From a bacterium ADurb.Bin236 (GTDB taxonomy: Bacteria; UBP15; UBA6099), in contig MWCD01000001.1 in assembly GCA_002069885.1 (NCBI GenBank), forward strand, positions 67,795-131,794: a stretch of 64,000 nucleotides of DNA. The letters are read 5' to 3'. Of the stretch, positions 19,527-63,365 are shown piece by piece; the stretch's first letter is position 1, and each line of letters starts with the position of its first letter. The translations under genes and the position numbers were made by a program. The notes beneath the pieces were generated by a model. That model saw nothing but the letters and a program-made list of their open reading frames with translations. It had not been told where the DNA came from and searched no databases.

Positions 19527-19766
19527 ATAATTATTATAACATCGCGAATATTGCCGAATCAAAACAAATATTTCCATCTATCCGGCATATCAGCGCGAAT
19601 GATGCTTCGTTCATCGCGTATAGGGTCTTTCTAACAATGACACGGATTAAATTATTAGTTGATACCCGCACATTTATGTGTTATCTATATATGGCGTTGA
19701 AATGGGCGCGGGAAGCGCCTATAGCGTATTTTTTAATGATTAACAAACGCAGGCGAGGTTTTCAAC

Positions 19767-24660: not shown

Positions 24661-25260
24661 CTAGCCGGGGCCGCCGTCTGAAGCCATTGTCCTAGCAATT
24701 TCGAGGTCTTCCGGATTGTTCACGTTGAAGACGAATCTGCGCCACGAATCTTCATCGAGGCCGAGGTCGGCGGCGGATATCCAGCGAATTCTCAGTTCTT
24801 CAATGCAGGCCATTATTTTGAAGACGCCGCGGCTTATTCCGCGCTCAATCGCGTCGCGCGCCGCGATAGAGTATGAAGACAAGAGTGGCTGAGGTCCTTC
24901 TTTAGAAAAAACAATTCCGGCGTCCGAGTCTTTCGAAAGGTCGAAAACGCGGGCGAGTGTGGCTCCATCTATAAAAGGTGTGTCGCAGGGGGCGACTTGG
25001 TATTGTTCTCTAGGAAAAGCGTTCATAACGGAGAGCAAACCGCCAGCAGGCCCTTGTCCGGGGGTATCGTCCGCAATGGCGGCAAGCCCTAGCCGGGAGT
25101 AGCGTTCCGGCTCGTTGGTCGAGAGAATGATTTCCGGGAAGTAAGGAGAAAGCTTTTCTATTATGTCGTCAATAATCGGGCGGCCGTTGAGTTCCAAGCG
25201 GGTTTTATCCGCGCCCATGCGGGAGCTTTTCCCGCCCATGAGAAGTATTAGGGTTCTCAT
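24661..25260 (-). CDS. mobA: Molybdenum cofactor guanylyltransferase
   Basis: The MobA N-terminal motif LILLMGGKSSRMGADK is present. The ATG overlaps the stop of the upstream mcsAB-like gene. Confidence 0.75.
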   Translation of the reverse strand: MRTLILLMGGKSSRMGADKTRLELNGRPIIDDIIEKLSPYFPEIILSTNEPERYSRLGLAAIADDTPGQGPAGGLLSVMNAFPREQYQVAPCDTPFIDGATLARVFDLSKDSDAGIVFSKEGPQPLLSSYSIAARDAIERGISRGVFKIMACIEELRIRWISAADLGLDEDSWRRFVFNVNNPEDLEIARTMASDGGPG

Positions 25261-26933
25261 CTGCGGGAGCGCGACCTCCCCGCGCCCCTTCCGTTTGCGA
25301 TTTCGGAGTCTTTCGAATACAGCCATGCGTCCACGATTTCCGCAAATAGGTCCGCGCGGCGGGCCTCGCATTCGTTGATGCTGCTCGTTTTTCCGTCCGC
25401 TAGCATTATTCCGGCGGACGACATGGCGGGCAAAACATCGGAAACGGCGAACGCGGGCATCTCGACCAATCCTCTATCCAGAGCGAGGGAAAAGAGCGAA
25501 ACAAACCTGAGGGCGTCATGATATGAAAGCCTGTGCGCGCGTTTGGCGTTGTGTATGACGCGCGGAATGGCGCGATACATCCTGTTTTCGTCGTCGGGCG
25601 AGAAGGCGTCTCGCAACTCCCCTTCTCTCTGAATAAGTCGCGCGGCGAAATCACCTGTCGAAACGGCTATCTCTTCGGCGGTCTGGCCGAATCCGACGAG
25701 AGCCGACACAAGATAGAAGCCGTGATGTTCGAGGTTGGAGCCTCTGAAGGGTTCGACTTTCACGGAATAGCGCTCCGCTCTGTCCGGCCAAAAGAATGTG
25801 TCGCCGCTCAGAAAACTGTAAGGCAGATGCAACAGGATGGACGCCGAAGCTCCCGACCCGATATATTTCGGCGAGGCCGCAAGATAACCGAACCTCGGAG
25901 AGAACGCCGGTTCGGCGTTCTTTTCCATTCCCTCGACAGCCTTAAGAGCCTTTGCCATCAGAGCTGCGGCGTCCGCGCCGGCAGCGCCGGACTGGAACGC
26001 GCTCACCGAAAGATGATCAATGTCGTTTATCAGCGCCGACATTGAGCCGTCGCGATTTATGAGGGCAGAAGAACGAGGTTCAGGCCGCCTCATGAAAAAA
26101 CGTTCGCCGAGGGCGAGCCTCTCAATCGCGGACAGAAGCTTCATATCTATTCTTGAAGAAGCTGAAATAAAGCCCTTGGGCAGAAGCGAAACGGCTAGAA
26201 GCTCGACAAGCTCGCGCCTTGAGGGCGAAAGCCTGCCGGGAAAATTGAAACCGGAGAAATTGCGTCTGAGTTCGACGCGGCTCCATACTATTCCCGTATC
26301 GTTGGAAGACGGCGAGCAACCGCCGCCGGAGTTAATTGCCGATTTTGCGGAAGCGTCGAGCTTCAGCGCAGCCGGGAACCCCTGCGCGGCCCTTTTCGAC
26401 GCATCTATCCGGGATTTCGCGCGGCATTCTACTTTCTTTTCCAGCTTCAGAAGGGCTTCCTTATGTTTCCCAGCGGACGCATAGTCTTCCGTCCTGATTT
26501 CTTCTTCTATTCTGTTTTTCAGTTTCAGGAGTTTCGAACGCTCAGAGTAAGCCGCCGGGGACGGCCCTCTGTAAAACGACACGCCATCGGCGAGCGAGCA
26601 ACCAAGCAAAGAAAGATAACCGGTAAGCATCGAGCCGAAAACGGAAGCGCATTCCGGGCAACCGAGCCTGAAACCGCGTTCGAATTCCCGGAGTTTGGTT
26701 CCGCAAGCTCTGCAACTGTCCGCAAACTCAACCGGCAAATCGTAGCAGGAGAGAGTCTGGGAGAGGTCGTCCGCGCCGCCAAGACCTCTTATCTGGGACT
26801 CGACGCGCCTGAGAGCGGCCAGCATCCCCACGGATTCCGCGCATTCCGCGCAGAAACCCACTCGCGGGCTTTCCTGTCTTCCCCAAGACAGGAAGTAATC
26901 AGCTTTGTTTTCACCGCATTTCGAGCACTTCAT
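25257..26933 (-). CDS. mcsB: Fused McsA-McsB: an N-terminal McsA-like Zn-finger/UVR module joined to a protein arginine kinase (ATP:guanido phosphotransferase) domain
   Basis: The N-terminus has CxxC pairs (CSKCGEN..CAECA..CRACG..CPEC) and a UVR-like helix (LKNRIEEEIRTEDYASAGKHKEALLKLE). The C-terminal blocks VWSRVELRRNFSGFNFP, INDIDHLSVSAF and GYLAASPKYIGSGASASILLHLP align with Bacillus subtilis McsB as I recall it. Confidence 0.7.
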   Translation of the reverse strand: MKCSKCGENKADYFLSWGRQESPRVGFCAECAESVGMLAALRRVESQIRGLGGADDLSQTLSCYDLPVEFADSCRACGTKLREFERGFRLGCPECASVFGSMLTGYLSLLGCSLADGVSFYRGPSPAAYSERSKLLKLKNRIEEEIRTEDYASAGKHKEALLKLEKKVECRAKSRIDASKRAAQGFPAALKLDASAKSAINSGGGCSPSSNDTGIVWSRVELRRNFSGFNFPGRLSPSRRELVELLAVSLLPKGFISASSRIDMKLLSAIERLALGERFFMRRPEPRSSALINRDGSMSALINDIDHLSVSAFQSGAAGADAAALMAKALKAVEGMEKNAEPAFSPRFGYLAASPKYIGSGASASILLHLPYSFLSGDTFFWPDRAERYSVKVEPFRGSNLEHHGFYLVSALVGFGQTAEEIAVSTGDFAARLIQREGELRDAFSPDDENRMYRAIPRVIHNAKRAHRLSYHDALRFVSLFSLALDRGLVEMPAFAVSDVLPAMSSAGIMLADGKTSSINECEARRADLFAEIVDAWLYSKDSEIANGRGAGRSRSRR

Positions 26934-28343: not shown

Positions 28344-28370
28344 TCAAGATTTTTCCGGGAACGCCGATAT
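28344..28370 (+). promoter_or_regulatory. Sigma-28 (FliA)-like promoter: TCAAGATT-N11-GCCGATAT
   Basis: It matches the E. coli sigma-28 consensus TAAAGTTT-N11-GCCGATAA at 6/8 and 7/8 positions, with the correct 11-nt spacer. It lies about 95 nt upstream of the 60-aa ORF. Confidence 0.5.
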
Positions 28371-28464: not shown

Positions 28465-28647
28465 ATGTCGTCAGTATCGATGGGAAGTTTTGATTATGCC
28501 TCCAGAATAGTGACCAATTCGCTGAGAGCTCAGAACATTGCGTTGCTGAATCTGTTCGAAGTAGTCAAACAGGCAGCCACAGCTCAGACAACTCCTTTAG
28601 CGAATTTGGCCAATACGCCGCAGAACGTCGTGGATATTTACGCTTAA
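28465..28647 (+). CDS. Small 60-aa protein, possibly a YjfB-like motility-associated peptide
   Basis: A GGGAGG RBS lies 8 nt upstream. A strong intrinsic terminator follows the gene. No Cys residues are present. The C-terminal NVVDIYA resembles my recollection of YjfB-family ends. Confidence 0.45.
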   Translation: MSSVSMGSFDYASRIVTNSLRAQNIALLNLFEVVKQAATAQTTPLANLANTPQNVVDIYA

Positions 28648-38607: not shown

Positions 38608-39909
38608 TCATTCACTGGGAGCGTCGTCACAGCATCTGAATCCTACGCCGGTAAACCCCAAATCCATTGTTGAGTAAACGCCCGGTCGCGCGCAAGCTGA
38701 CTGTTCAGGCCCAGTTAGCCACGAACCGCCCCTTCTTTCTTTAAGCCCGCTGTTTTCAAGATAATGCTTGTAGTTTTCCGATGTGTATTCCCACAGGTTG
38801 CCGGACATATCAAAAACGCCGTATTCGTTCGAGCAGAGAGGATGAGCGCCCGAAGGCTGAAGCTTAGTTCCGGCCACGTTGCAGGCGGACACATCGTAAA
38901 AATCCCCATATGGATACAGTGATTTGCGAGGCCCGCGGCATGCGCGGTTCCACTCCGGGCCGGAACACAACCGCTTTCCGGCTTCCGCGCATTTCTCTTC
39001 CGCCTCATTTGGGGAAAGCGTCTCCATCGGCATCCGTCCTGCTTCATTTGGAAACTCGTAAATGTCCACACAAAATGAATCCACGAACACCGCGTCGGCT
39101 TTACCGCCCTTTGGTCTTTCCACCACCACATATCCGGCGGGTATTTCAACGGTTTTATCTTCACATCGGCCCGCACCGATCTTTGCCGCCTCGTCCGCAA
39201 GACCTCCGGCGTCAAGAACATCGTTCCATGCCGACAGATATTTCATCATTTTTGCTATGTCGAATCCATTCGGCCCGCTTCTGGCTCCGCTTATTCCGAA
39301 AAACGCCGCCTTGTCTTGCTTGAGAAGAATCGACTGCTCGTCAACATCAGTTATGTCGGCTTCCCCTGCCATGCAGTAGAATTCCGAGCCTCTCTGCGCG
39401 GCGCTTGCTTCAATTCCGCCCTCTCTTACGAACAGCCTAGCTTTTCCCATCCTTGCAACCGCTGAGAATGTTTCTACCTCGAAAGGCTTGGTTCTTCGCT
39501 CCGACCATCGCGTTTTTGCGACAATATACGCCTCGCCTCGGTAGAGGGATATGCCCCTCGCCGGGACTTTTCCTTCCTCATACTTTGTTTCCGGACGAAT
39601 TCCCAATATCAAAGCTTCGGAGCCGCCTGCCAATCTTGCGTCCCCTCCGTCTCTGAAAACTATCATTGCGGCAGATTTTTCTCCGGTTCTTATCCTGTCT
39701 CCGGCTTCCAGAGAATCGCCAGAAGCCGCCTTCTTCCACTCGACTTCCTCGGCAGCGAGTTTCCAAGCTTCGCCTGAAACAGCGGAGACGACCGCAAACG
39801 GCATAAGCCCGTTCTTGGCGCATCCTGAATAAAACATGGCGATGAAGAACAGAGACATAGTCCATGCCGCCCTGTGAAATCCGCGTTTTCTGTTTCTTTC
39901 ATCTGACAT
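38608..39909 (-). CDS. Lipoprotein with an FecR-like domain and a C-terminal formylglycine-generating-enzyme (FGE-sulfatase) domain
   Basis: The lipobox FFIAMFYSGC is present. A FecR-like block SAAMIVFRDGGDARLAGGSEALI is present. The C-terminal FGE motifs are GNLWEYT, RGGSW and GFRCC. The start is uncertain (40017, 39909 or 39858). Confidence 0.6.
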   Translation of the reverse strand: MSDERNRKRGFHRAAWTMSLFFIAMFYSGCAKNGLMPFAVVSAVSGEAWKLAAEEVEWKKAASGDSLEAGDRIRTGEKSAAMIVFRDGGDARLAGGSEALILGIRPETKYEEGKVPARGISLYRGEAYIVAKTRWSERRTKPFEVETFSAVARMGKARLFVREGGIEASAAQRGSEFYCMAGEADITDVDEQSILLKQDKAAFFGISGARSGPNGFDIAKMMKYLSAWNDVLDAGGLADEAAKIGAGRCEDKTVEIPAGYVVVERPKGGKADAVFVDSFCVDIYEFPNEAGRMPMETLSPNEAEEKCAEAGKRLCSGPEWNRACRGPRKSLYPYGDFYDVSACNVAGTKLQPSGAHPLCSNEYGVFDMSGNLWEYTSENYKHYLENSGLKERRGGSWLTGPEQSACARPGVYSTMDLGFTGVGFRCCDDAPSE

Positions 39910-40010
39910 TTGCGCGACCATCCGCCAAATCTGCCTATTTTTCTTTGCAATTATATCAAACAATCCCGCCGCAGACCTTGTTTCGTGAAACGAACGTCTG
40001 CGCAAACTTG

Positions 40011-41354
40011 TCAGCAATCAATCCTGATATCATCAGCCGTCATTCCGTCCGAAAAAACACTGCGCAGAGAGCCGTATGCGATTCGGCCTTTCAGTTCATC
40101 CGCTCCATCGGCAAACACGCGGATATAGTTGCGCGTAAGGCCCGTCAGCCTCCCCGTCGCAGGATCGCGGCGCGACTCGAATAGAATCTCCGCGCGTTCA
40201 CCCACATGCCGGAGCCTGAATTCCTCGCCTAACCGCTTTTTTATCGCTGACAGGTCTCTCGCTCGCCTTTTTTTTATTTCATCAGAAACTTGTCCCGGCA
40301 ACTTTGCGGCAGGCGTTCCTTCGCGCGGCGAATATCTGAATATATGCAGATGCGACGGCCTTGTCGATTCGAGCAACGCTTTCGTTCGCAGATGATTTTC
40401 ATCGCTCTCGCCGGGAAATCCCACAATCACGTCCGCTCCTATCGCAGCTTCAGGAAATATTTCTCTTAATAAGTCAACCGAGCGGCGGTATTCGTCCGAA
40501 GTATAGCTCCTTCTCATCATCCTCAATATCGAGTCGTCCCCGCTCTGAAGGGAAACATGGAAATGTCCGCAGATTTTGTCCTTGCCGTTTTTTAGCGCGG
40601 CAAGAAAACCGGGCGAAATCTCTCCGGGGTCGATTGATCCCAGCCTTATTCTGCGAATTCCGCTCACATCAAACAAAGCGCGCAGCAGGTCGGCCAGCGT
40701 TTTGTTTTCTTCGGAACCTCTTCCATATCTTCCTATGTGAACGCCAGTGAGAACAATTTCCTCGTAACCGTTCGCCGCCAGCCGGGTCGCCATGCCGACA
40801 GCCGCTTCCATTGGAGCGCTTCGCTCTTTTCCTCTGGCGATAGGCACTATGCAATATGAACACCGTCTGTCGCATCCTTCTTGAATCCTAAGGAACGCCC
40901 TGTCGCGCCCTGCCATCCCTTCTATTTCCATAACGCGGAACTTCTTCTGTCCGAACACATCGTCAACAGCCCTGCGCGGCGCTCCTTCCCCTGCCTTTAA
41001 TGCTTCATCTACAAGCTCAGGAATGCGGTCTTTTTCAAGCGTTCCGGAAATGATGTCTATGCCGGAAACCATCGATTCGATCTCGCCGGGATTGACTTGA
41101 GAGTAGCAGCCTGTCGCCACCACGACCGATCCGGGATTGGCGTTTTTCATGGCGACGGCTCGCCGCAGAATCTGCCGGCATTGGTGGTCCGTCGAGCCTG
41201 TAACCGAACATGTGTTTACCACATAGACATCGGCCGCGACATCCTTCGAGAACGGGACGGACTCATATCCCGCTCGCTCGAACGCGAACCTAATCGCTTC
41301 GGTATCGGCCTGATTCAGTTTGCAGCCAAGAGTAGCAAACGCGACGCGTTTCAT
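40011..41354 (-). CDS. mtaB: MiaB-family radical SAM methylthiotransferase (MtaB-like)
   Basis: The MTTase N-domain VAFATLGCKLNQADTE is present. The radical SAM CxxxCxxC appears as CDRRCSYC. A TRAM-like C-terminus is present. Confidence 0.7.
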   Translation of the reverse strand: MKRVAFATLGCKLNQADTEAIRFAFERAGYESVPFSKDVAADVYVVNTCSVTGSTDHQCRQILRRAVAMKNANPGSVVVATGCYSQVNPGEIESMVSGIDIISGTLEKDRIPELVDEALKAGEGAPRRAVDDVFGQKKFRVMEIEGMAGRDRAFLRIQEGCDRRCSYCIVPIARGKERSAPMEAAVGMATRLAANGYEEIVLTGVHIGRYGRGSEENKTLADLLRALFDVSGIRRIRLGSIDPGEISPGFLAALKNGKDKICGHFHVSLQSGDDSILRMMRRSYTSDEYRRSVDLLREIFPEAAIGADVIVGFPGESDENHLRTKALLESTRPSHLHIFRYSPREGTPAAKLPGQVSDEIKKRRARDLSAIKKRLGEEFRLRHVGERAEILFESRRDPATGRLTGLTRNYIRVFADGADELKGRIAYGSLRSVFSDGMTADDIRIDC

Positions 41355-41426: not shown

Positions 41427-41744
41427 TCAGAGTTCTTCTTCCGAACGGACGAAACGTATGACTTGGTTCATGCGAGTTCGAAGCATTGATTCGAGGGCTA
41501 CATTTCTGGCGTTCAAAACCACGAATTCGCCGCCTTCGGCAATGGCTTTCTCGTGGAACCTCAGAAGCGTTCCGATCACGCTTGAGTTGATAACAGGGGA
41601 TTCCATGAGATCCACGCATATCGCATGATCGCCGGAATCGAACAGCACGGCCAATTGTTCGGACAAACGGGAGGAGTCCTCTATCATCGACAAGTCTCCG
41701 CCCGGACACACCACACAGAATTTTCCTTTTCTGCGAATCCTCAC
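41427..41744 (-). CDS. STAS-domain anti-sigma-factor antagonist
   Basis: The STAS fold is recognisable, with a phosphorylatable Ser region VINSSVIGTLL. Confidence 0.65.
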   Translation of the reverse strand: MRIRRKGKFCVVCPGGDLSMIEDSSRLSEQLAVLFDSGDHAICVDLMESPVINSSVIGTLLRFHEKAIAEGGEFVVLNARNVALESMLRTRMNQVIRFVRSEEEL

Positions 41745-41852
41745 ATCCGGCTCCCCCGCCGTCGCGACCTACGCAATAAATTCTAACACAATCAGCGTCC
41801 GCGTGAACCGCTAATTTTAATAATGTCGATTTCGAAAAACAGAATGATTACT

Positions 41853-42212
41853 TCAGGGGATATTTTCGACATTGTCATAAATCTTGAAAATGCTTCTAAA
41901 ATTCAGCATGTCGAATAGTTGGAGAATAGCGGGAGCGGCCCCGGCAATAAACATCTCCCCGCCTCGCGACCTCACGTATTTCAATGCCGCCACAAGCGAA
42001 CCGAGGCTTACGCTGTCGATAATCTGAATGTTGGACATATCTATCACTGCGTCGCCGGAGTGATCTATCAATGAATCCTTCACGGCGTTGAGAAAGCCTC
42101 TGTTGTTGTTGTGGGTTATCTCGTTGACTAGGGGTGTGATGACGATAGCGCCGCCGCTGAGGCGCGTCTCAACATCCATGTTGTCTTGTTTCTCGATCAT
42201 GCGGCTCCTCAA
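41853..42212 (-). CDS. STAS-domain anti-sigma-factor antagonist
   Basis: The motif IIDSVSLGSLVAAL (the conserved phosphorylatable Ser of the SpoIIAA/RsbV family) is present. Confidence 0.7.
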   Translation of the reverse strand: MRSRMIEKQDNMDVETRLSGGAIVITPLVNEITHNNNRGFLNAVKDSLIDHSGDAVIDMSNIQIIDSVSLGSLVAALKYVRSRGGEMFIAGAAPAILQLFDMLNFRSIFKIYDNVENIP

Positions 42213-42412
42213 GCATACGAGTCGAATCTGGAAAAACGTTGAATGCTATCCGTGCGCGCAGTCCACGGCCCCTGCTCGATGAGCGGCCGCCTATTTTCAT
42301 CAATCGATTTGAATGCCTCGGCCATGACCCTGAGCCATGTCGCGCTCTTATAAAGTCCGCCGGCCATCCATGTTATCTGCGCCGCGCTTCCTCCGCCTTC
42401 AATCGCTGACAT
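42209..42412 (-). CDS. Small hypothetical protein (67 aa)
   Basis: It overlaps the upstream STAS gene by 14 nt and the downstream STAS gene by 4 nt, a pattern typical of translational coupling. I found no recognisable motif. Confidence 0.3.
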   Translation of the reverse strand: MSAIEGGGSAAQITWMAGGLYKSATWLRVMAEAFKSIDENRRPLIEQGPWTARTDSIQRFSRFDSYA

Positions 42413-42767
42413 CGGCTTCCTCCCTTTCTCTGAACCATGCTACAGCGCTTTCCACGCTATTGAAAACTTTTATCACTTTATTCAGATGCAACGCGCCGAA
42501 CAACTCGTTGATTTTCGGGTCTTTAATCACCACTACCATGTCGCCGCCCAAACGGCGCGCGAACAATAGCAGCGGCGCGAGCATTCCTAGCGCCAAACTG
42601 TCCATGAACTTCACTCGTGAAAGGTCTAAACAAATATTGCAGTTATAATCGCTGAATGAGCTTCTAACCTTGGCGAAAGTTTCCTCATAATTCGTAAACT
42701 GTATGACCTCCACCAGAACGGTGACGACCCTCGTTTGTTCTATGTCTTTAACAAGAGTGTATATCAT
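42399..42767 (-). CDS. STAS-domain anti-sigma-factor antagonist
   Basis: The motif KFMDSLALGML is present. Length is 122 aa. Confidence 0.7.
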   Translation of the reverse strand: MIYTLVKDIEQTRVVTVLVEVIQFTNYEETFAKVRSSFSDYNCNICLDLSRVKFMDSLALGMLAPLLLFARRLGGDMVVVIKDPKINELFGALHLNKVIKVFNSVESAVAWFREREEADVSD

Positions 42768-43009
42768 TGACTGGCCTCTCGGTCATGACGCAAACACGCA
42801 TAACGTTGCTGTACTACATTATAACGACAGTTTTTAAAATAACTTTACAACTAAAACCGAGACGCGCCTCCAAAATCATCAAATATCGATTATTCATGTC
42901 TTTATTTGTGAAATAAAGCATTCTCTCAACCGAATAAATTCTCAACGGCTTATGCCGGAATGTCCGGTGTGTTATAATTTCCGAGACAACACATGGAGGC
43001 GACGGGATA

Positions 43010-44305
43010 ATGGTTCAGGTTTTGAGCATGGTGCTTGCCGGAGGCGAAGGGGAAAGGCTTTCCATACTGACACAAAGGCGCGCAAAACCAGTCGTCCTTT
43101 TCGGAGGCATGTACCGTGTCATTGATTTCGTGCTCTCCAATATAATCAACTCAGGTTTCAGAGACATCGGCATGCTGCTTCAGTACGAGCCTGACTCCGT
43201 TCTTAAACACCTCTCCTTTGCATGGACGATGGACAGAGGAATCGCTAGGATAGACACGCTTTTCCCGAAAAGAAAAAATGAAAGCTACGAAAGCCCCGCT
43301 GACGCTGTTTTTAAAAGGCTCGATTACATTCTGGATAAGAATCCTGTGTACGTCCTCATCGTCCCCGGAGATTACGTGTCCCTGATAGACTATAGAAAAA
43401 TCGTCCGGTATCACGAGGAGATGGAAGCTGACCTGACAATAGCCGGAACGATGGTGGATTCTTCGAAAGCGAACCGGTTCGGAATGATGAAGGTGAACCC
43501 GAGCGGAGAAGTGACAGGATACGTCGAAAAACCCAAGGGAAAAATCGACACGAACTTCGCCTCAATGGGCATTTATGTTTTTACATTGGACGTGCTTGTC
43601 AGAAGGCTCATAGAAGAGGACCGCACAAGCGGAGGCAGCCCGATAAGTTTCACATACGGGATGCTGCCGAAAATGCTGGGAGAGGACCGTGTTTTCGCGT
43701 ACAACTTCGAGGGATACTGGCGCGACATCGGAACAATAGATTCATATTTCGAGTCCAATCTGGAACTGATAAAGATAATGCCGGAACTGAACCTTTACGA
43801 CGTGAGGAACCCGTTGCGCTCGCGGCTGCGGTTCGAGCCTCCCGCGAAGATATGCGAATACGGGAGCGTGAAAAACTCGATAATAACCCAAGCGAGCCTT
43901 ATTGACGGACACGTCGAGCGCTCAATAATATTCCCTCACGTGCGAATCGACAAAGGGGCGGAAGTGTACGACTCTCTTATCATGCCTAACAACCACATCG
44001 GCGCCGGAACGATAATCCGCCGCTCAATACTGGACACCGTGTCACGACAGCAGCATAACGACATGAAGCCCAACATCGGGCGAGACAGCGTTATCGGCGG
44101 TTACGGAGACGCTCGCCCGAATATCGAGCAGCCCGACGCGCTCAATTCCAGCATCACTCTCGTCGGCATGGAATCGGAGATTCCCGACAACACGATCATA
44201 GGAAGAAACTGCATAGTGTATCCGGATGTTCGTTCTGTGGATTTTCAGGGACGCAGAACAATATCAGACGGGGAATGCGTGCATCCGACTTTGCACAGGC
44301 TGTGA
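43010..44305 (+). CDS. glgC: Glucose-1-phosphate adenylyltransferase family (GlgC/GlgD-like)
   Basis: The N-terminus LAGGEGERL...GGMYRVIDF is present, along with a left-handed beta-helix C-terminus. A TATAAT -10 and a GGAGG RBS lie upstream. Confidence 0.7.
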   Translation: MVQVLSMVLAGGEGERLSILTQRRAKPVVLFGGMYRVIDFVLSNIINSGFRDIGMLLQYEPDSVLKHLSFAWTMDRGIARIDTLFPKRKNESYESPADAVFKRLDYILDKNPVYVLIVPGDYVSLIDYRKIVRYHEEMEADLTIAGTMVDSSKANRFGMMKVNPSGEVTGYVEKPKGKIDTNFASMGIYVFTLDVLVRRLIEEDRTSGGSPISFTYGMLPKMLGEDRVFAYNFEGYWRDIGTIDSYFESNLELIKIMPELNLYDVRNPLRSRLRFEPPAKICEYGSVKNSIITQASLIDGHVERSIIFPHVRIDKGAEVYDSLIMPNNHIGAGTIIRRSILDTVSRQQHNDMKPNIGRDSVIGGYGDARPNIEQPDALNSSITLVGMESEIPDNTIIGRNCIVYPDVRSVDFQGRRTISDGECVHPTLHRL

Positions 44306-44321
44306 GCTAGGCCCTGTTCGA

Positions 44322-45056
44322 TCACCAGAAGAAGACCACATTGTCAATGTATATCTCGCCTTCCGGCATAATCGTAATCTTCACCTTCCCGGAGCCTTTT
44401 GATTCGTTTTTGATCAGATAATTGAAAACAACTCCCTCGCGTCTGAAATCCACAGCGGCTTTGCCCTTCATCAGTTTCATGGCCGGCCCGTTTTTCGCGC
44501 TGAACCTCGGTTCGGCATAGATTCCGGCAAAAGTGTGGAACGGAGAGGCGAGGATCAGGTCAAACTCGTTCAAATTTACGGCGAACCTCGGATTGAACGC
44601 TTTCCAGTCGGGGACTTCTTCAGAGCGGGCTTTCGTCGCGGAAATCGAATCCGGTTTTGACAACGAGTGAGAATATTTTCTGACAGCTTTCTTTAAGAAC
44701 TTCTGTGAAAAAGAAGGCGACCGCAATATCCTCGTTTCGCTGAAGGTAGCCCTGACCACAGGGTCTATGTAACACTTTTCCGGCTCGTTCGAAAATACGC
44801 AAACGAACACAAGCGCGCGCCTGTCTTTCGCGTTTTCAGAGAACCTCACTCCGAAGCTTTGGGAAAAAGACTTCGTCAACAACGCTGTTATCTCGCTTGC
44901 CTCCAACAAATCTCCATCGCCCTGCCTCGGAATGGTTCCGGCCTTAACCGAATAGTTCTTTGCCAGCCTTTCCGCGTAAATATCCCAAAACTCCGCCGCG
45001 CGGGCTGACCCCGCCAGCAATATAATTACCGCCGCAAACGCCACAGTCTTTTTCAT
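44322..45056 (-). CDS. Exported hypothetical protein
   Basis: A Sec signal MKKTVAFAAVIILLAGSARA is present. A GGAGGGGAGG RBS lies upstream. Confidence 0.5.
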   Translation of the reverse strand: MKKTVAFAAVIILLAGSARAAEFWDIYAERLAKNYSVKAGTIPRQGDGDLLEASEITALLTKSFSQSFGVRFSENAKDRRALVFVCVFSNEPEKCYIDPVVRATFSETRILRSPSFSQKFLKKAVRKYSHSLSKPDSISATKARSEEVPDWKAFNPRFAVNLNEFDLILASPFHTFAGIYAEPRFSAKNGPAMKLMKGKAAVDFRREGVVFNYLIKNESKGSGKVKITIMPEGEIYIDNVVFFW

Positions 45057-45201
45057 TGTCCACACCTCCCCTCCACTATTAATATACCCGCGCAAGCGCG
45101 CGCATAATCATAAATATTTGCTTTATTATTGGCATTATTAATGACAATGGATTCTCAAACTGCGTGTCGGAGCGCTGTCAAGCAATAACGTTTCGCGACT
45201 T

Positions 45202-45534
45202 TTATATTCTCATCAGAGCCTCTTCCTTATTCGAAAATATCCTGTATTGTTCATCTATATGAAGCCGGGCGAGAGTGTTTCTTACATCCGCAGGCACGGC
45301 GGCCAACGCGATTTTTCTGTCGTTAAACTTCTGTTTCACATTTAATAAAAAGGCCGCTCCTTTGCTGTCAATGAACGTCAATCCGGCCATGTCTATTATC
45401 ACAGGCAGGTTGTTTCCGCTTTTGACCTCGTCTATGGCGAATATAAGGGCTTCGAGGTATTCGCCGACCATCTCCCCTGTCAGTTTTATCATGTTGTTGT
45501 TATCAATCATCGCAGAATCAACCGTTAATTTCAT
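45202..45534 (-). CDS. STAS-domain anti-sigma-factor antagonist
   Basis: The motif FIDSKGAAFLL is present. A GGGGTG RBS lies upstream. It sits immediately downstream of the flagellin-family gene and its terminator. Confidence 0.7.
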   Translation of the reverse strand: MKLTVDSAMIDNNNMIKLTGEMVGEYLEALIFAIDEVKSGNNLPVIIDMAGLTFIDSKGAAFLLNVKQKFNDRKIALAAVPADVRNTLARLHIDEQYRIFSNKEEALMRI

Positions 45535-45649: not shown

Positions 45650-45690
45650 CAAAAACCCGGCCTTGCGGGCCGGGCTTTTGTGTTTTCGTT
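45650..45690. terminator. Bidirectional intrinsic terminator
   Basis: A 7-bp GC stem (CCCGGCC..GGCCGGG, 45656..45674) is flanked by an A-run upstream and a T-run downstream, so it reads as a terminator on both strands. Confidence 0.65.
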
Positions 45691-45735: not shown

Positions 45736-46746
45736 CTATCTATCCGATGCGACTCCCGAATAACCGACCATCTTCTGTCCTTCCAATCCATCATATATGG
45801 CGTCAAGCAAGGGGACGGCTATCAAGGGCTGAGCGTTGGCTTGGCTGGCGATCATAGTAGCGCCCTGCTGCTTAATCATGTTCTTGGTATACTCGAATAT
45901 CTCGTTGGCGAAATCCGCGTCTTCGATGCGCGAGTTCGAAGCCGAGACGTTGATGTACTGTGTGTTCAGATCGTTAATTGTTTTGTCCAGCCGTTCGTGC
46001 AGGATGCCGACCTGCACGCGCACCGCGTTCATCTTCTCCATCATGCCGTCCACCCTATCAAGCATAGCGTCGGCATATCCGAGATAGTAGTTGTAGCCAG
46101 CGTCGCCGAAAGGAGGCGGCGGCGCGTACGGAGTGTTAAACCCTACGAATTCGGCCGCTAGGTTGTCAATTACGATTTGAATCTGATTTGCGGCTGAATT
46201 GTTTGGGCCGACCTGAGAAGCTTGTCCGGTCTCGAAACCGTTGCCCAAACTGTCGTCGCCGAAAATTGTTTTAAGATTGAAGTTGAACCTCGCTGTGTGG
46301 ATAGGCGCGCTCGGATCGAGCTGATTATGAAACGCTCTGTAAACATGATCCTGTAATTTTTCGATTTCTTTAGTGAGGGACCAGCAGTCGCTCATGCTGG
46401 GCACAGACGCCGGGTCAGTATTGGGGTTGACGTTGTTCACCGCCATGTTGGCGAGTTTTAGAGTCAGGTTTCGCATCTCGTACAGAACGTCCCATTGATC
46501 CGAAACATAGTGGTCGGTCAGATCCAACAGATACTGGGTGTCCTGAGCGTTGCCGATAGCGACGCTTACGCCTCGCATCTGAGCCTTCATGCCTGATGAA
46601 ATCGCCATGCCGGACGGATCGTCCGAAGCATAGTTGATTTTCAATCCGGATGAGAGCCGAGTGGTTTTTTCGGTAAATTCCAGTTGATTGAGTCTGGAGT
46701 AATTCTGTGACGTGAGCGCATAGATATTGGTGTTGACCGATATCAT
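45736..46746 (-). CDS. Flagellin-family protein (336 aa) with a C-terminal extension
   Basis: The N-terminus RLSSGLKINYASDDPSGMAISSG and the C-terminus SRIEDADFANEIFEYTKNMIKQQGATMIASQANAQP match flagellin. About 30 extra residues follow the usual flagellin C-terminus. A GGAGG RBS is present. Confidence 0.75.
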   Translation of the reverse strand: MISVNTNIYALTSQNYSRLNQLEFTEKTTRLSSGLKINYASDDPSGMAISSGMKAQMRGVSVAIGNAQDTQYLLDLTDHYVSDQWDVLYEMRNLTLKLANMAVNNVNPNTDPASVPSMSDCWSLTKEIEKLQDHVYRAFHNQLDPSAPIHTARFNFNLKTIFGDDSLGNGFETGQASQVGPNNSAANQIQIVIDNLAAEFVGFNTPYAPPPPFGDAGYNYYLGYADAMLDRVDGMMEKMNAVRVQVGILHERLDKTINDLNTQYINVSASNSRIEDADFANEIFEYTKNMIKQQGATMIASQANAQPLIAVPLLDAIYDGLEGQKMVGYSGVASDR

Positions 46747-46901: not shown

Positions 46902-46928
46902 AAATCGGCCTTGCGGCGAAAAACTTTA
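46902..46928 (-). promoter_or_regulatory. Sigma-28 (FliA) promoter: TAAAGTTT-N11-GCCGATTT
   Basis: The -35 element is a perfect consensus, the -10 matches 6/8, and the spacer is 11 nt. It lies about 155 nt upstream of the flagellin-family start. Confidence 0.6.
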
Positions 46929-58656: not shown

Positions 58657-60114
58657 TCAAAACTTCAAGTTGTACACGACGACATCGTCCGTTTTCCCCT
58701 TTAGTTTGACGCGGCGGCTGGGGCCGAATTGAAAATGTTCTTTTAGTTTCTGATAGACGGTTTCTCCGACAAGGACGCCCTCGCGGCTCGACGACGATAG
58801 AGACTTTATGCGCGAAGTCAGATTCACGGTGTCGCCTATGACGGTGTATTCCATACGCCTGATGCTGCCAATGTTGCCTGCGACGACATTGCCGGAATTG
58901 ACGCCGATGGCCACATTGAATTCCGGCAGCCCGCGCTCCGCCCATACGCGATTGAGCGCGGCCAATCCGTCGCGCAGCCTGATAGCGCATTCGACAGCTT
59001 TTCTTTCGCCGTCCGGGTCGGGCAGCGGCGCGCCCCAGTACGCCATTATGTTGTCTCCGATGAACTTGTCGATTGTTCCGTCCAGTTCGAAAATCGAGTC
59101 CATCGCCATTGAGAAATATTCGCTGAGCATATCCAGAAGAAGAGCGGCGTCCATGCTCTTTGACAACTCGCGGAAATTGACGACTTCGGCAAAAAACACT
59201 GTCACCCAAGCGCTGCTGCCTCCGAGGTCAAGCTTGTCAGGGTCCTTTAGAATCTGTTCAGCGACGCGTTTTGAGACGTAAGAAGAAAATGTGTCCAGAA
59301 TCCTCTCTCTGTTTATTTCATGATTGATGGTGGTTTTCAAAAGTTCGGCGTGTTCTATAGAGCTTTCCATCGCCCTTTTTATGGAGGACAGATAAGAAAC
59401 CATGTCTGCGCCGAATCTTTCCGCGGAACTGTCGGCGACGGCAATTACGCCTTTTACCGAGCCGCTCCAGATGAGAGGGAATACTGATAGGAAATCTAAC
59501 TGTGCGCTTTGGTCGGAAGGGCCGCAGTATTCGAGGCGGGGGTCGCTGTGGGTGAAGCGACTGACGAAAAGTCGGCCTGACCTTGCGACTTCATAAAATA
59601 GGTGGTCTGAAGGAAGAGGCTCGGCAGACAATTCGCCGCGAGGCCGCAGTTGCCCGAGTTCGTCGAACAGAAAAACATCAGCGCTCGCCGCGCTCGCTCT
59701 ATGGGCGAAGTTATCTTCTAGCGCAGCCAACAACGAGTCTTCGTCAGGGTTGTCCTGAAACTTTTTCATCGCGTCGATGATGCCCGCGACGTTTTCCCTG
59801 CTCTCTTTTATCGTTTTGAGGATGTGGCCGAGATAAACGCCGGCTCCCATTAGAGCGAAAGAGGCAAATACGAAATTTGTTCCGGACCTCGTCGCTCTCG
59901 AATACTGAAGTATGAAAAAAGGAGACAGGCTCAGCAACAAGATTAAAGAAGTCAGAATAGAGCCGGTTCTTCTGAAGTAAAGTCCTGAGAGAGCGACAGG
60001 GACTACCACCAGCGGGCGCGCCCACTCTTCCATCGGAAAGTTGAACCACGTGGTAAATGCGATTATGGACAACGCCGCCAGCGACGTTGCCGCGACCAGC
60101 CCGACTCGTTTCAT
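58657..60114 (-). CDS. Membrane-anchored GAF-domain class III adenylate/guanylate cyclase
   Basis: About four N-terminal TM helices are followed by a GAF-like region and a cyclase homology domain (KFIGDNIMAYWGAP). Its ATG overlaps the upstream stop. Confidence 0.7.
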   Translation of the reverse strand: MKRVGLVAATSLAALSIIAFTTWFNFPMEEWARPLVVVPVALSGLYFRRTGSILTSLILLLSLSPFFILQYSRATRSGTNFVFASFALMGAGVYLGHILKTIKESRENVAGIIDAMKKFQDNPDEDSLLAALEDNFAHRASAASADVFLFDELGQLRPRGELSAEPLPSDHLFYEVARSGRLFVSRFTHSDPRLEYCGPSDQSAQLDFLSVFPLIWSGSVKGVIAVADSSAERFGADMVSYLSSIKRAMESSIEHAELLKTTINHEINRERILDTFSSYVSKRVAEQILKDPDKLDLGGSSAWVTVFFAEVVNFRELSKSMDAALLLDMLSEYFSMAMDSIFELDGTIDKFIGDNIMAYWGAPLPDPDGERKAVECAIRLRDGLAALNRVWAERGLPEFNVAIGVNSGNVVAGNIGSIRRMEYTVIGDTVNLTSRIKSLSSSSREGVLVGETVYQKLKEHFQFGPSRRVKLKGKTDDVVVYNLKF

Positions 60115-61001
60115 ATTATTCCCGCCATAAGCAAAACTTCGTTCATAGCCGACATAACAAAACACACCGCAAACGATGTGCGCATCCTCTTAAAAGTCAG
60201 GCTCATAACAAGAGTCATAAGGAGCGCCTCCGCTATGAATCCTCCTATAATTGACTGTATCGGGATTGTTCCGAGGAAAGAAAAAAAGGCGAAGTAAGGA
60301 AGGTGCACGGCTGAAATCATCGTCAGCAGAATAACGGTCGTTCCGACAGTTGTCAGCCCTCTTTCGTCTTGTCTGTTCCAGACTGCGTAAATGAAACTGA
60401 ACAGAATCAGCGCCTGTGACCACATAACGGCAAAATGAGGGGCGACTTTCCAGAAATCAAAACTCACCGGAAATCCCCAGTTTGAGACGAAGATGACAGT
60501 GTACGCAAGAACAACGCATCCAGCCAACGCGGATTTGGCAATGTCGGCAGTCATTCTGCCTTTTCGCATCCCGAATTTTGCCATAAGCCCGGGTTCGGAC
60601 ACGGCAAGATAAAAAACCGCCCAACAAGCGAACGCCGGATAAAAAACATACATTTTCGGAGTGTCGTAGAAAAAGTATTCCCACGACTGAAAACCGGGCA
60701 TGCTGATTAGAATCAATACCGCGCGCCGGAGATTCAACGCGCCGAAAACCGCCAGCCCGCCGATAAAGATTATCAAATGCAGCGCGACCGCATAGCAGTC
60801 GGAAACCTGTCTTTCAAACAATCCTGCTTTATGCATAAAAACCATGAATCCTGAAACGCATCCGTAAGCGAAAAGCAGAATAATAGCGCGGATGAAAACA
60901 GGGTCGCTGAACGACCTGAACTTTTCGCGTTCAAGAGAAGCGTCTTCCTTTAGTCGCAATTCAGAGAATGTTTTTTCAAGTTCAGCCGAGCCTAAGCTCA
61001 T
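60111..61001 (-). CDS. Polytopic integral membrane protein of unknown function
   Basis: There are about 8 predicted TM segments. I recognised no motif. Confidence 0.5.
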   Translation of the reverse strand: MSLGSAELEKTFSELRLKEDASLEREKFRSFSDPVFIRAIILLFAYGCVSGFMVFMHKAGLFERQVSDCYAVALHLIIFIGGLAVFGALNLRRAVLILISMPGFQSWEYFFYDTPKMYVFYPAFACWAVFYLAVSEPGLMAKFGMRKGRMTADIAKSALAGCVVLAYTVIFVSNWGFPVSFDFWKVAPHFAVMWSQALILFSFIYAVWNRQDERGLTTVGTTVILLTMISAVHLPYFAFFSFLGTIPIQSIIGGFIAEALLMTLVMSLTFKRMRTSFAVCFVMSAMNEVLLMAGII

Positions 61002-61011
61002 CGTTTGCGCC

Positions 61012-61854
61012 TCAATAGACCAGCGATTTATAAAACATGTAATAGAGCAGATATGACAAAAAAACCATCCTTGTGGAACGGCAGAAATAGAAAGCCATAG
61101 TAAGAGTCACTTGTGTGAGCAGGCAGGCGGCGAGTGAGCCGATGAAAGCCGTCACCGGGTCTTTGCTTCCGATTACGTTCGGAGCCCACATTGAAAAGAC
61201 GAAGAGCGTGTTGATTAGCACAGGAACGGAAAGCTCAAATCTGCGATCCAACAACGCGCGGGTAAACAAACCGTAGATTATCCCGAAAACGGGGCCGTAA
61301 ACCGCGATATTAACTGCCAGATAGAAAACAAACTGTGCGGGCGAAGGGAAGGAGACCGAGGCTCCTCGCGCTTTGCTTATGAAAAAATATGTCACTGTTA
61401 TAAATACAGCCGCAGTCAATAAGGAGAAAGCGGCTTCTTTCTTCAAGTCGGAAGCAGCCGCATATCCGAGAGACGAGAGCGTTTTGGGGGCGGATTTTAT
61501 CAAGGCCGCCAGCGACAGGAAAGCAGGGAACGCAAACACCAGAAACGAAGGCGCAATAAAAATGCTCCCTGCTATCGCAAATACGGCAAAACCCGCAAAA
61601 ACAATAAACCTGAACCAAGCCGCAAGAGACATTCCGCCTGCGGATGCTAGAGCCGCTGGAAAAGCGATAAACAAAAAAACCATTGCCCCCGTAGCTTCTC
61701 TAGCCTGCTCTTCATAAAAAGCAAAAACAATAGCCGAAGCGAAAAAAGCCGCCGCAAAGACTGACGCCGATATGCGGAACGTCGGCTCAGTAAATAGAGA
61801 CATCTTCTGGAAACCGTTGTAATAAGCTTCCGTTTTTCTGTAATAGTAATTCAT
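61012..61854 (-). CDS. Polytopic integral membrane protein of unknown function
   Basis: The protein is highly hydrophobic and 280 aa long. Its start overlaps the stop of the second cyclase. Confidence 0.5.
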   Translation of the reverse strand: MNYYYRKTEAYYNGFQKMSLFTEPTFRISASVFAAAFFASAIVFAFYEEQAREATGAMVFLFIAFPAALASAGGMSLAAWFRFIVFAGFAVFAIAGSIFIAPSFLVFAFPAFLSLAALIKSAPKTLSSLGYAAASDLKKEAAFSLLTAAVFITVTYFFISKARGASVSFPSPAQFVFYLAVNIAVYGPVFGIIYGLFTRALLDRRFELSVPVLINTLFVFSMWAPNVIGSKDPVTAFIGSLAACLLTQVTLTMAFYFCRSTRMVFLSYLLYYMFYKSLVY

Positions 61855-63365
61855 AGCCGCATGCCTTTTATTACAAACAATTCGTCGTCGCGCGCGGCGA
61901 CGGTTTCGTCTATTCTCTCTATGTCAAACTTGTCCGATATCAAATCAGCGGTCTGGCGGGTAACCAGCAGTTTCTCGCCGTGCCGTTTGGTGAGGGATTC
62001 CGTCCGCATAGCCTTGTCGACCTCTTCGCCGATTATGGTGAACATGGTTTTTCTGTTGTCGCCGACGTTGCCGACGAGCGCCTCTGCGGTATGCACGCCC
62101 ACTCCTGTCCTAAAGGTCTCCTTTCCTTCAGAAGCCCATTTTGCGTTCAGGCCTTCGACCGCCGCAAGGATGTCGAGAGCGGCGAGAGCGGCGTTTTCGG
62201 CGTGTCTTTCATCAGGCGCCGGGGCGCCCCAGTACGCCACCACGCAATCGCCTATGTATTTGTCGATAGCGCCGTTTCGGTTAAACACCACATCGACAAT
62301 GACGGTGAAATATTCGTTCAGTCTGCGGACAAGCTCCTGAGGGGATATCCTCTCGGAGATTGTCGTAAAATCCCTGATGTCAGTAATTAGAATCGAAATC
62401 AACTGGCGGCGGCTTTTCAGCAAATCCGGGTTCGATAGCATGTGCTCGGCGACGGACGACGAAACGAATCTTGAAAACAACTCTTTGGATCTTTTTTCGC
62501 GAGCCAACTCTTCTTGCCTTCTTCGCTCCTGACCGATGTTCGCCACGACCGCCGCGGCGGCGTCCGCAGCCAGTTGTATGAGGGACGCGTCCTCTTCGTC
62601 GAAATCCACGCCGTCGCTTTTGTTTATAAGCGCCACTGCGCCTGTCACGCCGTTCTTGGAGCGCATAGGGGCGGCCAGCATTGATTTGATCCCTGAGTCG
62701 CCGCTCGGAATAAACCTTTCATCCGCGTCCGCCGAACTGCATGAAAACAATTTGTTTTCCGAGGCGCATCTCATAAGAGGATGCGTTTCGTCAAAGGTCG
62801 GCAAATCAGCGAAACCGGTTTCGATACGATATAAAACAGGCGGAATGGACGAAACTTCCAAATCAGCGGATGGATTCAGAACAACCGCCACAGCCTCCGC
62901 GCCTGTGAGCCTGACCGTCTGCTCGGCCAGCCGCATCATCACATCCCTCTCCGTGGTCGAGCCTCCTATAGTCAGCATCGCTTCCGAAGCTGTCTCTGCG
63001 TCTTTATTGGCTTTTCGTCCTCTGCCTACCGCCCACCCTGAAAACACGCCGAGGAGATTCAAAAACACGAGCATTGGGATAATGACCAACACGCCCACCG
63101 CGCTGTCGACGTGAAACGGCTCGACCGGCGCGTATAAAAGATATAAAACGGTCACGATTATCCCTGTCGCGATGCCGCCCTTGAGGCCGAACCCGCTGCC
63201 GGCTTGATAGATTGGAAAAAGAAGAAAGAACTTTATATAATCGCGTCCGCTCCACCCAACTGCCAGAGCGGAGAACATTACGGCGAAACAAACCGCGATT
63301 TCAATCAATATCAAAGCCCAAAGCTTGCTTTCTTTGCGCCTTGTCGCCGCGATGTCGCTATTCAA
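61851..63365 (-). CDS. Membrane-anchored GAF-domain class III adenylate/guanylate cyclase (paralog)
   Basis: N-terminal TM helices are followed by GAF and a cyclase domain (KYIGDCVVAYWGAP). The apparent start is a TTG at 63365. Confidence 0.7.
   Translation of the reverse strand: MNSDIAATRRKESKLWALILIEIAVCFAVMFSALAVGWSGRDYIKFFLLFPIYQAGSGFGLKGGIATGIIVTVLYLLYAPVEPFHVDSAVGVLVIIPMLVFLNLLGVFSGWAVGRGRKANKDAETASEAMLTIGGSTTERDVMMRLAEQTVRLTGAEAVAVVLNPSADLEVSSIPPVLYRIETGFADLPTFDETHPLMRCASENKLFSCSSADADERFIPSGDSGIKSMLAAPMRSKNGVTGAVALINKSDGVDFDEEDASLIQLAADAAAAVVANIGQERRRQEELAREKRSKELFSRFVSSSVAEHMLSNPDLLKSRRQLISILITDIRDFTTISERISPQELVRRLNEYFTVIVDVVFNRNGAIDKYIGDCVVAYWGAPAPDERHAENAALAALDILAAVEGLNAKWASEGKETFRTGVGVHTAEALVGNVGDNRKTMFTIIGEEVDKAMRTESLTKRHGEKLLVTRQTADLISDKFDIERIDETVAARDDELFVIKGMRL

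Follow-up and report, generated by a model that had tools for sequence, protein, structure and literature searches.

A conserved STAS/small protein/STAS operon with a predicted sigma-28-type promoter as a candidate partner-switch-like module in uncultivated flagellated bacteria

The stretch of 64,000 nucleotides (nt) analysed here, referred to as the window, comes from contig MWCD01000001.1 (assembly GCA_002069885.1, positions 67,795 to 131,794) of bacterium ADurb.Bin236. It encodes two flagellins and four STAS proteins, three of them in tandem, with an open reading frame (ORF) of 67 amino acids (aa) between two of these. An earlier interpretation made from the letters of the window, called the sequence-only reading below, took the four STAS genes as one expanded set of anti-sigma-factor antagonists that reaches the flagellar sigma factor, sigma-28. 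The host lineage is uncultivated and flagellated, and is known from anaerobic-digester genome bins (ADurb.Bin236 and relatives); since the window encodes LpxK, KdtA and SecA, the organism is a diderm. The genome is also reported to carry a SepCysSn-SepCysS operon and a non-canonical homologue of SepRS, both unrelated to the STAS genes (PMC5424206). The present analysis concerns the module formed by two of the STAS genes and the small protein between them, designated sp67. The genes and the site in front of them are as follows.

42821..42847, minus strand: sigma-28-like element TAAAGTTA-N11-GTCGTTAT, 53 nt upstream of STAS3.
42399..42767, minus strand: STAS3, 122 aa, motif FMDSLALG, first gene of the triad; Pfam STAS score 44.0 bits.
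42209..42412, minus strand: sp67, 67 aa; start overlapping the stop of STAS3 by 14 nt, behind a strong ribosome-binding site (AGGGAGG).
41853..42200, minus strand: STAS2, 115 aa when started at ATG 42200, the ORF reaching back to a TTG at 42212; Pfam STAS score 58.4 bits.
41427..41744, minus strand: STAS1, 105 aa, GTG start after GGGGGAG; Pfam STAS score 29.3 bits.
45202..45534, minus strand: STAS4, 110 aa, downstream of a flagellin gene; Pfam STAS score 42.8 bits.

All four ORFs exceed the gathering score of the Pfam STAS family (PF01740, 22.6 bits) and are therefore members of the STAS superfamily, located where the sequence-only reading had placed them. They are single-domain proteins of 105 to 122 aa. 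An alignment of the four with SpoIIAA and RsbV has the phospho-acceptor serine as its sole invariant internal column; in each of the four this serine corresponds to SpoIIAA Ser58 and RsbV Ser56. The claim that all four keep a phosphorylatable serine held when put to a careful alignment. The local motifs across the four proteins are NSSVIG, DSVSLG, DSLALG and DSKGAA. The curated cut-off of NCBIfam TIGR00377 (53.45 bits) is reached by STAS2 only, and narrowly (54.2 bits), as against 42.4 bits for STAS3, 29.8 for STAS4 and 20.6 for STAS1. Among solved structures, those of SpoIIAA, TM1442 and RsbV are nearest in sequence to STAS2 and STAS3. Two other identities were considered and did not fit: MlaB, with STAS4 at 21 bits against the mlaB_1 cut-off of 90, and the stressosome proteins RsbR and RsbS, given single domains of 105 to 122 aa and no kinase nearby. 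A Pfam scan of the window genes revealed no Mla or ABC transporter genes adjoining the STAS genes.

The four STAS genes are not equivalent, as STAS2 and STAS3 alone belong to a conserved module. The order STAS3-type gene, sp67 gene, STAS2-type gene is complete in 8 of 11 related loci (L010, L018, L019, L020, L029, L030, L031 and L032), and the remaining three (L013, L015 and L026) lie on short contigs that end before the third gene and agree with the order as far as they reach. Overall, the triad is a conserved unit of roughly a dozen lineages of uncultivated bacteria. Profiles built from the distant orthologues give STAS3 174 bits and STAS2 116 bits against their own groups, and about 65 bits against each other's. 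The serine is kept in 12 of 12 STAS3-type and 7 of 7 STAS2-type orthologues, and behind STAS3 homologues that share about 60% identity there is likewise an overlapping ORF, 67 to 71 aa long. The overlapping stop and start of STAS3 and sp67 constitute an arrangement typical of translational coupling. The small ORF had been described as wedged between two STAS genes by overlaps on both sides. The overlap with STAS3 is real; with the start chosen by the gene callers for STAS2, the ATG at 42200 preceded by GGAG, there is instead a gap of 8 nt to sp67, and the two genes overlap only if translation begins at the alternative TTG 42212.

Several other genes recur beside distant triads. In six loci a divergently oriented gene beside the triad encodes a conserved, beta-rich protein of about 100 aa (L015 1156-1476, L019 9092-9400, L029 9141-9464, L030 9153-9449, L031 9110-9409 and L032 1-282, all on the minus strand); it matches no Pfam family and has no homologue in the window. 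A zinc-ribbon and TPR protein of 465 to 500 aa adjoins the triad in L018 (7878-9299), L019 (10886-12388) and L029 (10631-12028), and in the latter two its gene is followed by one for a giant protein with fn3 domains, more than 2500 aa long.

The sequence-only reading had treated the 67-aa ORF as filler, yet sp67 turned out to be the most distinctive conserved component of the module. A HMMER search of 1.84 billion representative proteins returned 11 sp67 clusters (50% identity), all of 52 to 70 aa, and a profile search of 5.8 billion proteins returned 24 clusters (90% identity), all of 48 to 71 aa. The family alignment of 25 sequences displays the motif MMAxAF..D..R..L..NGPWTART, with invariant residues M30, F34, G48, W50 and T54. 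An artefactual ORF is ruled out by these 25 diverged sequences, their conserved motifs and the fixed position in the operon; sp67 represents a real, previously undescribed protein family. It matches no family in Pfam or NCBIfam, no Pfam match recurs among the 25 members even at E-values up to 10, and a comparison with solved structures in the PDB gave one meaningless match only (E = 0.18). At the level of sequence and profile, identity with FlgM is likewise ruled out, as no member matches PF04316 at E-values up to 10 and the hhalign probability between the sp67 profile and a FlgM alignment is 0.2%. AlphaFold2 models computed with 12 and with 25 sequences consist of one long helix (approximately residues 7 to 47), the GPWTART segment and a short helix, with a mean pLDDT (predicted local distance difference test score) of 63 to 66. 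Judging from these models, sp67 may become ordered only on binding a partner.

A further small ORF of the window, 60 aa at 28465-28647 on the plus strand, matches nothing in Pfam and ends in VDIYA, which resembles the D-x-Y-A end found in the sp67 family. A sigma-28-like site with three mismatches, TCAAGATT-N11-GCCGATAT, lies about 95 nt upstream of it (28344-28370, plus strand).

The connection between the STAS genes and sigma-28 had been based on the element upstream of STAS3 and on the proximity of the flagellin genes. The element lies where it was reported, at four mismatches from the Escherichia coli sigma-28 consensus. Sites of this quality number 23 in the window as compared to 10.6 expected from shuffles; alone, the element is at chance level and is not evidence by itself. 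The promoters of the two flagellin genes are of a different quality.

45736..46746, minus strand: flagellin gene, 336 aa, with Flagellin_N and Flagellin_C domains.
46902..46928, minus strand: promoter of this gene, TAAAGTTT-N11-GCCGATTT, near-consensus sigma-28, two mismatches, matrix rank 2.
35218..38169, minus strand: giant flagellin gene, 983 aa, with Flagellin_N and Flagellin_C domains and PD40 and TSP3 inserts in the central region.
38483..38509, minus strand: promoter of the giant flagellin gene, TAAACTTT-N11-GCCGATAA, near-consensus sigma-28, one mismatch, matrix rank 5.
45650..45680, minus strand: intrinsic terminator between the 336-aa flagellin gene and STAS4, a 13-bp stem, 8 of its pairs G-C, and then a T tract.

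Against the promoter type of the sigma-28 regulon, taken as TAAAGTTT-N11-GCCGATAA, the chance expectation for sites as good as these two is 0. The giant flagellin gene has a leader of about 310 nt.

The informative signal was a conserved promoter and not the neighbourhood of the flagellins. Upstream of the STAS3 orthologues of four loci (L015, L018, L019 and L020), which defined the pattern, stands TAAAG-N14/15-GCCG[AT]A. With the pattern fixed beforehand, it was then found upstream of the triad in all five loci that were added later (L026, L029, L030, L031 and L032). The sites of all nine distant loci conform to cTAAAG-N14/15-GCCG[AT]A with exact core boxes. In approximately 232 kb of loci and window, both strands included, the pattern TAAAG-N14/15-GCCG[AT]A has only three other matches. 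The boxes cTAAAG and GCCG[AT]A are invariant while the spacers and flanks vary, even within the close pairs L019/L031 and L020/L026. Variants with GCCGAA occur among bona fide E. coli FliA promoters, for example that of tsr (PMC4183435). In a census of the 12 examined loci, nine carry the promoter and the other three, the window included, a near or degenerate match.

A weight matrix was built from the nine distant sites only and scored over the approximately 128,000 positions of the window. The two flagellin promoters came 2nd and 5th and the site upstream of STAS3 came 12th; the probability that one of the 12 best sites falls by chance on the correct strand of this 240-nt region is approximately 0.02. 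The sister lineage, L010, shares these degenerate boxes, as TTAAGTTA-N11-GTCGTTAT, in a spacer that has otherwise diverged. To judge from these sequences, the triad is an operon with a sigma-28-type promoter in the distant relatives; in the window the promoter has possibly been weakened or remodelled, its -10 box overlapping a TATAAT hexamer. The proposed link between STAS genes and sigma-28 survives through the promoter upstream of the orthologous triad and not through flagellin proximity; that adjacency is not conserved outside the lineage of the window. A search of the motAB genes of L029 for a sigma-28-type site found none.

STAS1 and STAS4 appear to be divergent additions specific to the lineage of the window. 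Against the triad STAS profiles from the distant orthologues, STAS1 gives 8 to 17 bits and STAS4 12 to 21 bits; recent duplication of a triad STAS gene is ruled out for both, as true orthologues score 116 to 174 bits. None of the distant triad loci contains STAS1, STAS4, MtaB or flagellin genes. The search for STAS4 homologues returned two clusters in total, STAS4 itself and one at 84% identity. STAS1 follows the triad and ends 24 nt ahead of mtaB (TIGR01579, 401 bits), and a sigma-70-like site lies upstream of it at 41807-41780. STAS4 comes 201 nt after the gene for the 336-aa flagellin. The sole candidate for a sigma-28 promoter of its own (45574-45547) ends 13 nt before the ATG, overlaps the ribosome-binding site and was judged non-functional. 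Beyond mtaB, whose end it overlaps, a gene at 38608-40017 (minus strand) encodes a 469-aa fusion of a FecR and an FGE-sulfatase domain; the sister lineage also has it downstream of its STAS cluster.

Enzymes that could set the phosphorylation state of the STAS proteins were searched for in the window and around it. No plausible gene of the 64 kb contains a HATPase_c, SpoIIE or PP2C domain by Pfam scan, a scan that, apart from seven intergenic stretches, covered the window without gaps of more than 200 nt. A six-frame tblastn search of the window with RsbW and SpoIIAB as queries gave a best E-value of 0.45. The absence of a GHKL kinase and a PP2C phosphatase from the window, as claimed in the sequence-only reading, agrees with both searches. 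The flanks, covered for approximately 6 kb beyond each window end, encode no RsbW-type kinase or phosphatase; one flank carries genes for the biosynthesis of purines and thiamine, the other encodes a TPR protein and a hybrid histidine kinase. FlgM is not encoded in the window either, and with the flanks included, none of FlgM, kinase and phosphatase was found within about 76 kb. In the 11 other loci examined, no partner-switching kinase or phosphatase adjoins the triad.

We favour the interpretation, with a probability of about one half, that STAS3, sp67 and STAS2 form an operon of the sigma-28 (FliA) regulon that would act as a partner-switch-like module, with sp67 as a non-kinase partner. 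In its favour stand the order of the triad, the conservation of sp67, the recurrent promoter, the matrix ranks and the invariant serine, together with the precedents of HsbA and flgMN. In Pseudomonas aeruginosa, unphosphorylated HsbA binds FlgM and frees FliA (PMC6482189), a precedent that the sequence-only reading had cited correctly, and the flgMN operon is itself FliA-dependent (PMC4183435). By analogy, one or both STAS proteins could bind sp67 through its long helix and GPWTART motif, as unphosphorylated HsbA binds FlgM. A kinase and phosphatase pair encoded elsewhere would set the phosphorylation state of the serine. Because sigma-28 would drive the operon, the module would act during or after the expression of the filament genes, and its output could be either a feedback on sigma-28 or a switch of a motility-phase output. 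A stronger version, which we consider unlikely, would make sp67 a new class of small anti-sigma-28 factor, a FlgM analogue without sequence similarity that lies between two STAS antagonists and is transcribed by sigma-28, so that the operon would be a self-contained feedback switch with no adjacent kinase.

Several points weigh against the partner-switch-like module. In canonical partner switches the kinase is encoded next to the STAS gene, unlike in any of the 12 loci, where no kinase adjoins the triad. Sp67 resembles neither FlgM (hhalign 0.2%) nor any anti-sigma factor. In the window the -10 box is degenerate (GTCGTTAT) and contains a TATAAT hexamer, and the dependence on sigma-28 may be weak here or may have been replaced. 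The promoter class could be cross-checked on flagellin genes in the lineage of the window only, as the distant loci contain no flagellin gene. Finally, we infer binding, phosphorylation and transcription from sequence and by analogy.

The same body of evidence bears on three other explanations. In the model of the sequence-only reading, all four STAS proteins form an expanded HsbA-like set that antagonizes a canonical FlgM and controls sigma-28 and the flagellins, with kinases of the RsbW or HsbR type and a PP2C phosphatase encoded elsewhere. The serine conserved in all four proteins, the genuine HsbA-FlgM precedent and the sigma-28 promoters that precede both flagellin genes and, among relatives, the triad are in its favour. 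The model is nonetheless doubtful, since outside the lineage STAS1 and STAS4 are conserved neither with the triad nor with flagellins, STAS4 is cut off from the flagellin gene by a strong terminator, the strictly conserved sp67 is assigned no role, and FlgM, kinase and phosphatase are all missing from the roughly 76 kb searched. Alternatively, the clustering might be a coincidence, the STAS proteins being ordinary orphan anti-sigma-factor antagonists of a general stress partner switch, close to flagellin genes by chance and preceded by a motif unrelated to sigma-28. The lineage-specific flagellin adjacency and a window promoter that, by mismatch count, is at chance level speak for it. It is already disfavoured, and we regard it as quite improbable: the cTAAAG and GCCG[AT]A boxes recur in nine of nine distant loci with variable spacers, the nine-site matrix recovers both flagellin promoters of the window, and the order of the triad is strictly conserved.

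A possibility with better prospects, though still tentative, is that the triad is an output module of the sigma-28 regulon that has no sigma factor as its target. Together with sp67, its STAS proteins would then control something else in the motility phase, for instance a nucleotide cyclase (phosphorylated HsbA acts on HsbD in this way) or a surface or biofilm function in the manner of SypA. A conserved promoter implies regulation by sigma-28 rather than of sigma-28. HsbA itself has a target that is not a sigma factor, its phosphorylated form activating HsbD (PMC6482189), and the zinc-ribbon/TPR protein and the giant fn3 surface protein recur beside distant triads. Against this, no conserved enzyme partner stands next to the triad in all loci, and the neighbours vary by lineage.

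Some features elsewhere in the window may be recorded here. Two class III adenylate/guanylate cyclase genes, one of them with a GAF domain, lie in 58657-63365 (minus strand) and flank two genes whose products, 280 and 296 aa long, match no family. A 790-aa ORF at 17205-19577 (minus strand) has no Pfam or NCBIfam match. At 25257-26933 (minus strand) is encoded a fusion-like protein of 558 aa that combines McsA (activator) and McsB (protein arginine kinase), and a weak sigma-28-like site, TAAAGTTT-N11-GCCGCAGC, stops 11 nt short of its start. Scanning the window for Rfam families and for tRNAs gave no match.

The usual mark of a partner-switching module is a STAS gene that stands beside a GHKL kinase/anti-sigma factor. 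The triad would be a compact alternative to such kinase-adjacent modules, built from two different STAS proteins around a 67-residue protein and provided with a conserved promoter for the flagellar sigma factor. Our search of the literature found no account of a STAS/small protein/STAS operon, nor of STAS genes in the FliA regulon. The nearest structures for STAS2 and STAS3 belong to the SpoIIAA-SpoIIAB and RsbV-RsbW systems (TIGR00377; PDB 1AUZ, 1TH8, 6M36), with which they share the D-S-x-x-L-G context of the serine; unlike these systems, the triad has no adjacent gene for a GHKL kinase/anti-sigma factor or for a sigma factor, and only STAS2 reaches TIGR00377. The four STAS proteins depart from the canonical SpoIIAA/RsbV module type in the missing adjacent kinase and, in three cases, in a score below the curated cut-off. 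SypA of Vibrio fischeri is an orphan single-domain STAS regulator whose output is not a known sigma factor. It is paired with SypE, a kinase/phosphatase in the same locus, unlike the triad.

As to the flgMN operon of E. coli and Salmonella, a FliA-dependent class 3 operon, the likeness lies in a small operon for regulatory proteins with a TAAAG-N-GCCGA promoter that is transcribed along with flagellin (PMC4183435), while the gene products are unrelated, sp67 being distinct from FlgM in sequence and in profile comparison. The HsbA-FlgM/HsbR system is similar in its single-domain STAS protein with a phosphorylatable serine, in a small non-kinase partner that is largely unstructured or helical, and in its link to sigma-28 and motility. 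It differs in that hsbA adjoins hsbR, which encodes kinase and PP2C domains, whereas no kinase or phosphatase lies near the triad in any locus; moreover, FlgM is not encoded between STAS genes and is unlike sp67, and the triad has two distinct STAS proteins. If sp67 is the target of the STAS proteins, a function would be assigned to a new family of small proteins, and the triad would be the second natural case, after HsbA-FlgM, of STAS proteins acting on a small protein that is not a kinase, and a more tightly encoded one.

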